From: a virus
Lineage: Duplodnaviria; Heunggongvirae; Uroviricota; Caudoviricetes
IMG/VR virus record: IMGVR_UViG_2698536312_000015
Length of the DNA stretch: 4,580 nt
Strand: one strand, 5' to 3'
Of the stretch, positions 2,460 to 4,580 are shown piece by piece (position 1 is the stretch's first letter; every line of letters starts with the position of its first letter). The position numbers and the translations under genes were made by a program. The notes below the pieces were generated by a model that saw only the letters and a list, made by a program, of their open reading frames with translations, had not been told where the DNA came from and ran no database searches.

Positions 2460-2485
2460 NNNNNNNNNNNNNNNNNNNNNNNNNN
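2460..2485. other. N run (26 nt) in the start region of the 236-aa gene
   Basis: Directly seen; flanked on both sides by the identical 9-mer CATTATAAT (2451-2459 and 2486-2494). Confidence 0.95.
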
Positions 2486-2494
2486 CATTATAAT

Positions 2495-2500
2495 TTCCTC
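2495..2500 (-). promoter_or_regulatory. Shine-Dalgarno (GAGGAA) 6 nt upstream of ATG 2486-2488
   Basis: Minus strand reads GAGGAA-ATTATA-ATG, an ideal initiation context. That ATG is out of frame with the 236-aa ORF and would give at most an 11-codon ORF ending at TAA 2453-2455. Confidence 0.5.
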
Positions 2501-2550
2501 TAAGTGTGGTTATTTCTTAATAGAGCACCTTCAACGCCAATACACTTAGA
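2499..2550 (-). promoter_or_regulatory. Possible RNA hairpin abutting the ribosome binding site
   Basis: Perfect 9-bp inverted repeat TCTAAGTGT / ACACTTAGA (plus 2499-2507 and 2542-2550), 34-nt loop. On the minus-strand transcript the 3' arm runs directly into the GAGGAA SD. No U-tract follows, so not a terminator. Confidence 0.35.
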
Positions 2551-2557
2551 AGATGAC

Positions 2558-3454
2558 TTAACGATTTATTAAAGNNNNNNNNNNNNNNNNNNNNNNNNNN
2601 NNNNNNNNNNNNNNNNNNNNNNNNNNNNNNNNNNNNNNNNNNNNNNNNNNNNNNNNNNNNNNNNNNNNNNNNNNNNNNNNNNNNNNNNNNNNNNNNNNNN
2701 NNNNNNNNNNNNNNNNNNNNNNNNNNNNNNNNNNNNNNNNNNNNNNNNNNNNNNNNNNNNNNNNNNNNNNNNNNNNNNNNNNNNNNNNNNNNNNNNNNNN
2801 NNNNNNNNNNNNNNNNNNNNNNNNNNNNNNNNNNNNNNNNNNNNNNNNNNNNNNNNNNNNNNNNNNNNNNNNNNNNNNNNNNNNNNNNNNNNNNNNNNNN
2901 NNNNNNNNNNNNNNNNNNNNNNNNNNNNNNNNNNNNNNNNNNNNNNNNNNNNNNNNNNNNNNNNNNNNNNNNNNNNNNNNNNNNNNNNNNNNNNNNNNNN
3001 NNNNNNNNNNNNNNNNNNNNNNNNNNNNNNNNNNNNNNNNNNNNNNNNNNNNNNNNNNNNNNNNNNNNNNNNNNNNNNNNNNNNNNNNNNNNNNNNNNNN
3101 NNNNNNNNNNNNNNNNNNNNNNNNNNNNNNNNNNNNNNNNNNNNNNNNNNNNNNNNNNNNNNNNNNNNNNNNNNNNNNNNNNNNNNNNNNNNCCTTGAGA
3201 TATTTTTCAGGGCTAACGCTGTATTTGTTCGTTTCTTCGATAATAAGACGCTTCATGTTTGAGTCGGTAACAGGAAACATAAAACGCGGTTCACCAGTTT
3301 CAATTTCCTGAATAAAGTCTTCAATTTCTTCTGAGTTTTCAGCCATTAGCTTTAGTAATTTATCAAGGTCAATTGATACACCGGAATCAGCGAAAGCCTG
3401 CACCATCATAGCAGTGTCGCTATCAATGAAAATCTGTAATTCATATTCGTTCAT
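2558..3454 (-). CDS. Hypothetical protein with strongly acidic N-terminus; only the first 87 codons are visible, the rest is N-masked
   Basis: ATG at 3452-3454 with AAGGAG 9 nt upstream; the track's TTG 3485-3487 start is rejected. Visible N-terminus MNEYELQIFIDSDTAMMVQAFADSGVSIDLDKLLKLMAENSEEIEDFIQEIETGEPRF… has 19 D/E vs 8 K/R in 87 residues. The ORF then enters the N block at 3192; the end at 2558 is only the first stop after the mask and is unverified. Confidence 0.5.
   Translation of the reverse strand: MNEYELQIFIDSDTAMMVQAFADSGVSIDLDKLLKLMAENSEEIEDFIQEIETGEPRFMFPVTDSNMKRLIIEETNKYSVSPEKYLKXXXXXXXXXXXXXXXXXXXXXXXXXXXXXXXXXXXXXXXXXXXXXXXXXXXXXXXXXXXXXXXXXXXXXXXXXXXXXXXXXXXXXXXXXXXXXXXXXXXXXXXXXXXXXXXXXXXXXXXXXXXXXXXXXXXXXXXXXXXXXXXXXXXXXXXXXXXXXXXXXXXXXXXXXXXXXXXXXXXXXXXXXXXXXXXXXXXXXXXXXXXXXXXLINR
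2575..3192. other. N run (618 nt) hiding most of the acidic-protein gene, possibly more than one gene
   Basis: Directly seen. 618 = 206 codons; content unknowable from this window. Confidence 0.95.
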
Positions 3455-3482: not shown

Positions 3483-3588
3483 CTCAATCGCTCTGTAACG
3501 AGCTAAACAGTCTTTTTCAGGGGTAGCCTGTACAGTGGTATTACCCACCCTAAAATAAGATAGTTTTTTGCGTTAGAATGCGATTGAG
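3483..3588. repeat. 9-bp inverted repeat pair (CTCAATCGC at 3483-3491, GCGATTGAG at 3580-3588) separated by 88 nt, with palindrome CTGTACAG (3528-3535) near the centre
   Basis: Read directly from the largest visible intergenic region (3455-3632). Rough chance expectation for a 9-mer inverted match in a region this size is a few percent. Confidence 0.4.
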
Positions 3589-3632
3589 AGCGTCTGATAA
3601 GCTGTTTTTCTAATTTCTCTTAAAGTCTCGGA

Positions 3633-3833
3633 CTACCAATAACCTAATTCCGCTTTATTTCGTTCAAACCATTCCGCTGTAACTGCTGTCTTTAGTGTTG
3701 CGTTTGGGCTGGTGGCATGAATGAAGATATCTTTTGGATTGCAAGCATCACCGAAACCACCTTCTTTGATGAGCAGGTCTGATACATGCTTAATCATTTT
3801 ATCTGTCAAATATTCGAATTTAATACATAACAT
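3633..3833 (-). CDS. Hypothetical small protein (66 aa from ATG; 77 aa if the upstream TTG at 3864-3866 is used)
   Basis: ATG at 3831-3833 overlaps the stop of the upstream ORF in a TAATG arrangement, with GGAGA 4 nt upstream; TAG at 3633-3635. No family recognised. Confidence 0.5.
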   Translation of the reverse strand: MLCIKFEYLTDKMIKHVSDLLIKEGGFGDACNPKDIFIHATSPNATLKTAVTAEWFERNKAELGYW

Positions 3834-4105
3834 TAAATCTCCAGGAGTAAATTGTTTGGGTGGCAATTTCTTTTATTACCATCCCTGAAGATAATCTTTT
3901 TAGTTGCCTGAACTTCATGATGCAAAAACCAGATGACATACTTCAGATAATAATCACGAGTGCCATAACGAATCATTGGATTACCGTAAGCATCATCTCT
4001 TGTCTTAACCTCTCCACCATCAATCCATTCAAGCATTCCTGTCTCATAATTAATCATGAAGTAAGTTGCAAAGAACCGTTTAATATCATCTCGCCATTGC
4101 TTCAT
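3833..4105 (-). CDS. HNH_3-like (homing-endonuclease-like) small protein, apparently lacking the catalytic histidines
   Basis: ATG 4103-4105 preceded by a perfect SD AGGAGGT (4112-4118, 6-nt spacer); TAA at 3833-3835. C-terminal half …YLKYVIWFLHHEVQATKKIIFRDGNKRNCHPNNLLLEI resembles the HNH_3 core as I recall it (…HRLVW…DHIDGNK.NN…NL…), but with F/R where the His of H-I-D-G-N is expected, and it stops right after the NL motif. Confidence 0.5.
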   Translation of the reverse strand: MKQWRDDIKRFFATYFMINYETGMLEWIDGGEVKTRDDAYGNPMIRYGTRDYYLKYVIWFLHHEVQATKKIIFRDGNKRNCHPNNLLLEI

Positions 4106-4107
4106 AA

Positions 4108-4386
4108 TCAGACCTCCTGAGACAGTTTGTGAATTTTGATACTTAGTAACCTTGCTAAATCCAGTCCAAAAGCATTTAAGGATTTCAGACTATCAAGGTC
4201 ATCTTGCTTAATCCTGATATGGTGTCTTGCAGCCTCTAAGCGACTATTAAGCAAATCCTGTTCGTTAATATCACGGTTAATTGCAAGCTTCATCACTGCT
4301 GAGTGTGGCAGACCTGTAATGTTTTTGATTCGGTTCAGTTCATCAAAGGCTGTCTTTGTAACTCTGGTTAATGTGTGTTTATTCAT
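4108..4386 (-). CDS. Ribbon-helix-helix (CopG/Arc/MetJ-like) DNA-binding protein, 92 aa
   Basis: ATG 4384-4386 with AGAGGA (4394-4399) 7 nt upstream; TGA at 4108-4110. N-terminus MNKHTLTRVTKTAFDELNRIKNITGLPHSAVMKLAINRD fits the RHH pattern (beta-strand, helix A, G-x-x-x-S-A turn, helix B; compare CopG …MGLSKSAMISVAL…). A ~50-aa C-terminal extension follows. Confidence 0.6.
   Translation of the reverse strand: MNKHTLTRVTKTAFDELNRIKNITGLPHSAVMKLAINRDINEQDLLNSRLEAARHHIRIKQDDLDSLKSLNAFGLDLARLLSIKIHKLSQEV
4112..4118 (-). promoter_or_regulatory. Shine-Dalgarno (AGGAGGT) for the HNH_3-like ORF, embedded in the 3' end of the RHH gene
   Basis: Complement of 4112-4118 reads AGGAGGT, 6 nt before ATG 4103-4105; overlaps the last codons of the RHH ORF (…Q E V stop). 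Confidence 0.7.
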
Positions 4387-4580
4387 TTAAAAATCCTCTG
4401 TAACTAAATAGGGGTCAAACTCGAAATCTGGTTGCTCGTTTTCCATTGGCTCAATATTCCCAACGGCAATATGATGTTCAACAATGCCAATTAATTTCGC
4501 GCACATCACAGCAAGCAAAGCGCAATATTTATCGCTTGGTAATTCGTAACTGGATTTGCCCCTATATTTCCAGACATCTG
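4387..4580 (-). CDS. Partial CDS (C-terminal 63 codons; start lies beyond the window edge)
   Basis: Open minus-strand frame from the window edge (4578) to TAA at 4387-4389, ending …NIEPMENEQPDFEFDPYLVTEDF. Its stop directly abuts the ATG of the RHH gene (TAAATG) and its last codons contain that gene's SD. Absent from the ORF track because it has no start in the window. Confidence 0.5.
   Translation of the reverse strand, partial: DVWKYRGKSSYELPSDKYCALLAVMCAKLIGIVEHHIAVGNIEPMENEQPDFEFDPYLVTEDF

Follow-up and report, generated by a model that had tools for sequence, protein, structure and literature searches.

The sequence analysed here, called the window throughout, is a stretch of 4,580 nucleotides from the IMG/VR virus record IMGVR_UViG_2698536312_000015 (Caudoviricetes), and it harbours between positions 3,633 and 4,386 a trio of small, tightly linked genes for proteins of 92, 90 and 66 amino acids (aa). 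The trio belongs to a phage-related integrative island, of which further copies (loci with L numbers) were available for comparison. Several stretches of the window are masked with N, and all window genes lie on the minus strand. The 92-aa open reading frame (ORF) extends from 4386 to 4108, the 90-aa ORF from 4105 to 3833 and the 66-aa ORF from 3833 to 3633; the last is counted from the ATG of its overlap with the preceding gene and would comprise 77 aa if counted from an upstream TTG. The stop codon of the 92-aa gene (TGA, 4110-4108) is located 2 nt ahead of the ATG of the 90-aa gene, whose Shine-Dalgarno sequence (SD) GGAGG (4117-4113, minus strand) falls within the Q-E-V codons ending the 92-aa gene, 7 nt from the ATG. 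The 90-aa and 66-aa genes are coupled by a TAATG overlap, in which the final A of the TAA stop is the first base of the next ATG. An earlier note, made from the window alone, had described the SD inside the last codons of the 92-aa gene as well as the coupled third ORF, and both can be read directly from the sequence. Neither a terminator nor a strong promoter was found within the trio. The coupled unit comprises four genes and not three, as a 185-aa gene lies upstream, with its TAA abutting the ATG of the 92-aa gene.

Judged by its sequence and its structure model, the 90-aa protein is a nuclease-dead HNH_3 domain of the I-HmuI type, which lacks the final helix and retains only the N-terminal half, the part predicted to bind DNA. 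The Pfam profile HNH_3 (PF13392) matches with 22.7 bits and thus does not reach the gathering score of 24.8 (E = 7.5e-5); the match spans only profile positions 1-38 of 46, and the relatives P0045, P0049 and P0054 exceed the cut-off. The AlphaFold model has a pLDDT of 93.4, and a Foldseek comparison with viral models retrieves 60 phage HNH endonucleases at E<=1e-3. In this model an N-terminal beta-sheet DNA-binding domain is followed by both beta strands of the His-Me finger. The family profile matches I-HmuI with E = 9.5e-4 and places "VVDHKDGN" opposite "KIIFRDGN", and BLASTP sets the same residues against "WIDHIDGD" of a canonical HNH_3-AP2 protein (174 aa) which the same island family encodes. 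According to both alignments Ile72-Phe73 (codons 3892-3887, minus strand) stand where I-HmuI and canonical HNH_3 proteins have the metal-ligand Asp and the general-base His, so that the His at the end of strand 1 (His75 of I-HmuI in our numbering) and the preceding Asp are absent. The chain terminates with NLLLEI directly after strand 2 and the model shows no helix beyond residue 88; the alpha-helix bearing the second metal ligand (Asn or His) is missing, as are the C-terminal DNA-binding modules (HTH, AP2, NUMOD). The earlier note had suspected an HNH_3-like fold without catalytic histidines that is not a simple homing endonuclease, and these alignments support both points. Because the catalytic residues and a complete metal finger are lacking, the RefSeq name "HNH endonuclease" is misleading.

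In comparison with the free-standing or intron-encoded phage homing endonucleases of the I-HmuI/HNH_3 group, including the HNH_3-AP2 proteins, the 90-aa protein is thus smaller, has Ile-Phe instead of Asp-His, and is devoid of the second-ligand helix and of any C-terminal HTH, AP2 or NUMOD module. The reuse of inactivated His-Me finger domains for DNA binding has known parallels in Smad MH1 and NFI. These domains are, however, eukaryotic, larger and zinc-stabilised, and no sequence relationship to the 90-aa protein was detected.

An exhaustive HMMER search with the 90-aa family against 1.84 billion representatives yielded 18 relatives at E<=1e-3. The position of the catalytic His is taken by F, Y or V in all of them, with the exception of a 95-aa paralogue; the relatives stop at the same point, and some consist of tandem domains around an AP2-like segment. 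The 95-aa paralogue is 39% identical to the 90-aa protein, has the start "MK[QP]W..D..R.F" and the truncation in common with it, and keeps the His ("IIHRNGN"). It is found in other copies of the same island, at a different junction. Since the paralogue is equally truncated, the short form should predate the split of the 90-aa and 95-aa proteins and has been maintained. Among 185,579 species representatives scanned for the 90-aa HNH family, Escherichia albertii was the only carrier.

Substitutions among 8-13 related loci from E. coli, Salmonella, Citrobacter and E. albertii indicate that all three genes are under purifying selection. In the 90-aa gene ten distinct codon changes are synonymous and five non-synonymous, where neutrality predicts about 12 of 15 to be non-synonymous (P=7e-5); codon position 3 takes 10 of the 15 changes and pairwise omega values range from 0.04 to 0.30. 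For the 92-aa gene, two alleles were tested separately and gave P=1e-11 and 8e-7 for the excess of synonymous changes, and for the 66-aa gene P=0.01 was obtained with omega roughly 0.1-0.4. Purifying selection together with the 39% identical paralogue of the same truncated architecture suggests that the 90-aa gene encodes a small sequence-specific DNA-binding protein and not a nuclease or toxin. An 86-aa ORF antisense to the 90-aa gene was considered as well and is a shadow ORF, the substitutions falling mostly at its codon position 1 and altering its protein.

The alignment of filled and empty sites delimits a facultative insertion cassette of ~275 bp (3845..4119, minus strand), which is composed of a 14-nt leader containing the SD and of the 90-aa ORF; the GGAGG site therefore belongs to the inserted DNA. 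The ends of the cassette are ambiguous by ~12 nt owing to a flanking direct repeat (GAGGTCTGA / GAGATTTAA in the window, GAGGTTTAA in other copies and at empty sites) with the consensus GAGGT[CT]T[GA]A. As a consequence of this repeat the last codons of the 90-aa ORF (LEI and stop) duplicate those of the 92-aa gene (QEV and stop). Filled sites are present in the window and in L001, L002, L009-L012, L014 and L023, empty sites in L003-L005, L008, L015 and L018. This presence or absence at one exact site, with conserved genes on either side, is a trait of free-standing homing endonuclease genes.

Some part of the region is contained in 381 of 5426 complete E. coli genomes, and 67 of the 5426 possess the 90-aa gene, which is 95-99% identical throughout. 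Over eight backgrounds the cassette is identical at 262-273 of 273 nt (96-100%), while the 92-aa gene directly beside it falls to ~60% nucleotide identity between alleles and the sequence downstream can be unrelated. Locus pairs sharing identical cassettes show a dS of 0.24-0.31 in both flanking genes. A uniform cassette in diverged flanks points to recent spread across diverged islands, with the cassette marking a mosaic boundary, a pattern which has been reported for phage nuclease genes (PMC10055350). The ORF-poor region of the island encodes in two loci (L003:5749-6273(-), L007:12023-12547(+)) the full-length canonical HNH_3-AP2 homing endonuclease of 174 aa mentioned above, with an intact "DHIDGD...N" motif. 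This protein is a candidate trans-acting nuclease and would mark the island as a hotspot for HNH genes; homing of the cassette driven in trans is possible.

The 92-aa protein is probably, with about even odds, a single-chain tandem ribbon-helix-helix (RHH) protein similar to DndE or TraY, as far as sequence and model can tell. Two apparent beta-alpha-alpha units can be recognised ("HTLTRVTKTAFDELNRIK..." and "HHIRIKQDDLDSLKSL..."), and invariant residues stand at matching positions in the two halves (R8/R58, F14/L64, L17/L67). An internal-repeat test with hhalign pairs the halves in the same register with E=0.022, which is suggestive only, and the model, which is of low confidence, places helices at 11-24, 28-36, 61-69 and 75-91. 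The only family hits, all below threshold and restricted to the first unit, are to DndE (Pfam, E=0.027, residues 8-48, 15 bits against a cut-off of 25; NCBIfam, E=0.065, 14 against 72). DndE consists of two tandem RHH domains in one chain (PMC10853773), and both DndE and the TraY protein of the F plasmid have two beta-alpha-alpha units in ~90-130 aa, as the 92-aa protein appears to have. In contrast to these proteins the 92-aa gene has no dnd or tra context, and with hits far under threshold and an unreliable structure model its membership is not established; no library contained a significant RHH match and a search of the PDB with the family profile gave no RHH hit. The RHH protein announced in the earlier note is hence retained for its two units and DndE hits, without significant HMM or structural support. 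The "C-terminal extension" described there exists as a segment, but if the tandem reading is right it is a second beta-alpha-alpha repeat and not a toxin-binding tail. Most likely the 92-aa protein binds DNA of the island, for example at repeated intergenic blocks.

The 92-aa family comprises 34 clusters, including Citrobacter and Salmonella, the 90-aa family 10 clusters. Two deep alleles of the 92-aa gene exist (window 4108-4386 and L002:8001-8279), whose products are ~61% identical with saturated dS, in flanks of 93-99% identity. Between the alleles the differences lie in helices and linker, and the residues predicted to form the beta strands are kept. This pattern resembles an allelic replacement of the immunity or specificity type.

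The 66-aa family (25 clusters, Enterobacteriaceae only) has no domain, and no match was found in Pfam, PHROG, NCBIfam, PADLOC or PDB. Its gene is the commonest occupant of a variable slot behind the 92-aa gene, for which at least six contents were observed. In Citrobacter (L003-L005) and E. coli C7 (L008) the 66-aa gene overlaps the 92-aa gene directly by TAATG and no HNH gene is present. The 90-aa gene is followed by the 66-aa gene in the window, L001, L002, L009, L010 and L014, by a 76-aa and then a 69-aa gene (the latter a distant 66-aa homologue) in L011 and L023, and by a gene for a 128-aa HTH protein in L012; in L015 the 128-aa HTH gene stands alone. In copies of the AMA1167 type (L007, L013, L016, L018) the slot holds a 71-aa homologue of the 66-aa protein and then the 95-aa HNH-like gene.

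As best explanation, to which we assign a probability of roughly 0.6, we propose that the trio is part of an operon of a phage-related integrative island, in which a nuclease-dead, selected and mobile HNH_3 DNA-binding cassette has been inserted between the gene of a probable tandem-RHH protein and a further small gene. The three ORFs then take places 2-4 in a translationally coupled operon (for proteins of 185, 92, [90] and 66 aa), which stands at the start of a long leftward transcription unit of the island; the island itself, which integrates by means of its large serine recombinase, ends with tape-measure and tube-initiator genes of the Felixounavirus type. The cassette would have entered precisely where the stop codon of the 92-aa gene meets the start codon of the 66-aa gene, with a duplication of a few bases, and would then have spread, nearly unchanged, among diverged island copies by recombination. 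In this scheme the 90-aa protein would be an accessory and not the partner of the 92-aa protein. Several points weigh against this explanation. The selection test on the 90-aa gene draws on just 15 distinct codon changes in related sequences, and about 9% of the catalogued members of the 90-aa family carry disruptions (one IS insertion, three different frameshifts and three deletion fusions), which indicates that the gene is dispensable in some hosts. DNA binding by the 90-aa protein is proposed by analogy, with the I-HmuI fold as the sole argument, and the RHH assignment of the 92-aa protein has no significant match behind it (DndE at E=0.027, nothing relevant in the PDB profile search, and a model pLDDT of 47). 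In addition, the recent spread could reflect ordinary homologous recombination between islands instead of a mobility specific to the cassette.

The likeliest other explanation for a polymorphic ORF without catalytic residues and without the C-terminal half is that it is a fossil without function, left by a free-standing gene for an HNH homing endonuclease and still open only through its recent insertion. The at least seven independent disrupted alleles and the very low overall diversity, as expected for a recent arrival, fit this idea. However, a fossil should not show ten synonymous and five non-synonymous changes where the opposite skew is expected, nor should it yield a model which is very confident for such a shallow alignment. 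The 95-aa paralogue keeping the truncated architecture and the N-terminal motif argues that the short form is old and maintained, and distant relatives with F or Y at the His position, partly arranged in tandem around an AP2-like segment, have the same end point. We therefore consider a fossil unlikely. On the other hand, the precise intergenic polymorphism, the flanking repeat, a cassette more uniform than its flanks and the mosaic boundary make up a signature of homing (as in PMC10055350), and the paralogue retains the His, so that the 90-aa protein could still be an active nuclease or homing endonuclease driving its own spread, either by non-canonical residues (e.g. His62, His63, Glu64, Cys81-His82) or as a subunit together with another protein. 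Since the general base and the first metal ligand are both replaced by hydrophobic residues, the helix completing the beta-beta-alpha-metal finger and a C-terminal DNA-binding module are absent, and frameshifted alleles persist, this seems very improbable.

The earlier note had raised the possibility of an autoregulated addiction, exclusion or anti-defence cassette. In an addiction cassette, a type II toxin-antitoxin system, the 92-aa RHH protein would act as antitoxin and autorepressor, neutralising the 90-aa and/or the 66-aa protein. A small basic RHH-like protein encoded first, the tight translational coupling to small downstream ORFs, the direct TAATG overlap of the 92-aa and 66-aa genes in copies without HNH gene and the location on a mobile element indeed resemble RHH-antitoxin modules (ParD/ParE, CopG-type, RelB-type). 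In contrast to these modules neither downstream partner is fixed. The trio does not recur as a unit, because the HNH gene does not travel with the other two and is missing from most copies, and the 66-aa gene is either replaced by the 128-aa HTH gene (in L012 and L015 the 92-aa gene occurs without it) or separated from the 92-aa gene by others. The same 90-aa protein, with 0-3 substitutions, is found beside 92-aa alleles which are only ~61% identical, and this lack of co-variation argues against a co-evolving pair. HMM searches with the three proteins revealed no toxin, antitoxin or defence family in Pfam, NCBIfam or PADLOC; an active known toxin fold is missing, the 90-aa protein having no catalytic centre, the supposed extension of the 92-aa protein resembles a second RHH repeat, and the pair occupies the middle of a longer operon instead of standing alone. 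A toxin-antitoxin function is accordingly not supported and is, in our opinion, very improbable; gene order of this kind alone predicts such systems poorly.

If the explanation by a nuclease-dead cassette is correct, the 90-aa protein is better annotated as a DNA-binding remnant than as "HNH endonuclease". The cassette would be a natural example of a homing-endonuclease domain which has lost catalysis, is maintained by selection and still stands as a mobile cassette at a mosaic boundary, and as such it bears on the domestication of selfish nuclease genes and on how these shape recombination boundaries.

The host island has a size of ~10-11 kb and is integrated in E. coli, Salmonella and Citrobacter at varying places of the chromosome, among them tonB-yciI and the interior of yecE (DUF72), with copies in ~7% of the complete E. 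coli genomes. Its extent was compared in L001:13338-24050 as well as in L002, L003-L005, L007 and L008. A large serine recombinase is encoded at one end and often a small resolvase/invertase at the other, and a conserved region of ~1.4-2 kb, located upstream of the 185-aa gene and beyond the IS2 end of the window, is almost free of ORFs. The operon contains the genes for the 185-aa and 92-aa proteins, the variable slot, and then genes for proteins of 107, 236 and 69 aa, followed by those for the tape measure protein (694 aa, TMP_3) and for a 256-aa "Dit-like" protein; part of the tape-measure gene lies at 13-1446 of the window. The "Dit-like" protein shares 83% identity with gp74 of wV8, a virulent Felixounavirus. 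As it is encoded right after the tape-measure gene, it presumably corresponds to the tube initiator, which in the Bas63 structure sits on the baseplate hub (PMC12609058). The tape measure protein is 30-33% identical to those of Ounavirinae. In a local tblastn of all island proteins against the tail region of wV8 these two were the only matches, and the 92-aa and 90-aa proteins had no tblastn match in 50,697 phage records.

Two blocks of 50-75 nt in the ORF-poor region are shared with a 1.7-kb noncoding region of 181 records, mostly of the Felixounavirus type. The blocks ("AATGATATTTTAAAATTCTGCAAAGGGGGT..." and "AGGGAACGATAAGACCAGAG.TAGTGACC") lie within L001:21470-23480 in the island and within L019:3001-3349 and L020:3001-3351 in the phages, their order in the island being the reverse of that in the phages, and the phage region often stands at record ends. 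They could represent packaging, origin or promoter mimicry.

Among the island proteins no replication, packaging or defence families were recognised. For the trio and the remaining small proteins of the island, Pfam, PHROGs, NCBIfam and PADLOC gave nothing beyond HNH_3, TMP_3, Dit_like and recombinases, PDB searches by phmmer and by profile with the 92-, 66-, 185- and 236-aa proteins nothing meaningful, and Rfam and tRNA searches of island and window no match. The IMG/VR hits to the island are prophage-type predictions and not particles, and a description of such an island was not found in the searchable literature.

As in satellites, an integrase is combined with sequences matching a putative helper phage, here of the Felixounavirus type, and judging from its gene content the island may be a PLE-like satellite or an element interfering with the tail assembly of Felix O1-type phages. 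PLE, the satellite of ICP1 in Vibrio cholerae, is likewise small, has a large serine recombinase and is tied to a strictly virulent myovirus. Unlike PLE, with which it shares no genes, the island bears tail genes (tape measure, tube initiator) and no recognised replication or packaging function. In a more far-reaching and rather doubtful version, the trio would belong to the control and accessory region of undescribed serine-recombinase islands of Escherichia, Salmonella, Citrobacter and Shigella, which parasitise or block Felix O1-type phages and have domesticated dead HNH cassettes for this conflict. The own tape measure protein together with the near-identical tube initiator would take over or poison tail assembly, and the 90-aa and 95-aa modules might shield a target site from phage HNH endonucleases or switch on the island operon, while their cassettes would still be spreading like homing genes. 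That a serine integrase occurs here together with tail-assembly genes and noncoding blocks known from strictly virulent Felixounaviruses is of larger interest than the trio itself, because an island of this kind, if it is indeed a satellite or tail-assembly interference element, would offer a PLE-like system in model enterobacteria.

Upstream of the trio the window contains only the 3' remnant of the 185-aa gene, its last ~54 codons (4387..4550, minus strand), which aligns to the C-terminus of the full 184-185-aa genes in L001, L002, L004, L007 and L023. This conserved first gene of the operon, whose product has an unnamed PHROG of unknown function as sole family match (E=1e-4), is interrupted at ~4551 by IS2. 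The left end of IS2 with its terminal inverted repeat (4551..4580, plus strand) matches at 100% the ends of annotated IS2 copies in records of phages, plasmids and E. coli, and related loci carry on with the 185-aa gene where the window has IS2; the junction itself had no match in the genome-collection scan. The 185-aa gene of intact copies is preceded at ~50 nt by a strong sigma70-like promoter (TTGACA-17-TAGTAT, extended TG), which is arranged back to back with another, divergent one. By cutting the 185-aa gene, IS2 has thus parted the trio from its native promoter in this genome. With its operon decapitated, the island copy of the window is probably defective. Partial proteins identical to the window's occur in the Shigella sonnei records P0008 and P0064, which makes Shigella a possible source of the window.

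Downstream of the trio, a conserved intergenic block (3488..3632, unstranded) between the 66-aa and 107-aa genes contains 8-9-bp inverted repeats ~95 nt apart and a GGGTGGG...CCACCC hairpin. RNAalifold gave a weak result for this block (covariation term -0.76) and no terminator-like site was found in it. Upstream of the 185-aa gene the block occurs again, in L002, L016 and L018 in the form of partial copies with direct orientation and at L001:22901-23045 as an inverted copy of ~140 nt; L002 has sequence of the block at 7152-7255 and 8786-8912. Its inverted repeats differ between two island classes with complementarity kept (GCTCTCAATCGC/GCGATTGAG and GCTCTGTA/TACAGAGC). The 92-aa or the 90-aa protein could use these repeats as operators, or they could form an RNA element. 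The idea that the ~140-nt inverted repeat beside the small invertase delimits an invertible segment was rejected, as only L001 fits and the partial copies of the other loci are direct.

The block is followed by the 5' part of the next conserved gene (3193..3454, minus strand; 107-109 aa in related loci), the remainder of which is N-masked in the window; its product has no family match. Between the 107-aa and 236-aa genes a gap of ~550 nt is left (window 2460-3192, largely N-masked; L001:19105-19652), which shows in L001 a strong promoter-like site (TTGACA-17-CATAAT, extended TG) and then two terminator-like hairpins, and might function as leader, attenuator or small RNA.

Transcribed divergently from the operon, a conserved single-pass membrane protein of ~62 aa ("MVNLPPELGSPDVWAGGG[IV]GLIAGLLLRY...") is encoded at L002:6955-7143(-), L007:10655-10867(+) and L023:1450-1668(-). 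This gene and the operon are served by a back-to-back promoter pair (L001 21548->21520 and 21556->21585). The protein has no family match; a role as small toxin, in exclusion or as a holin-like protein is conceivable. Finally, a direct repeat of 71 nt, whose copies are 90% identical and enclose a 12-bp hairpin, precedes both the tape-measure and the tube-initiator genes (L001:15737-15807 and 17995-18065; equivalent in the window at ~1450-1530), and may be a shared regulatory or processing signal.

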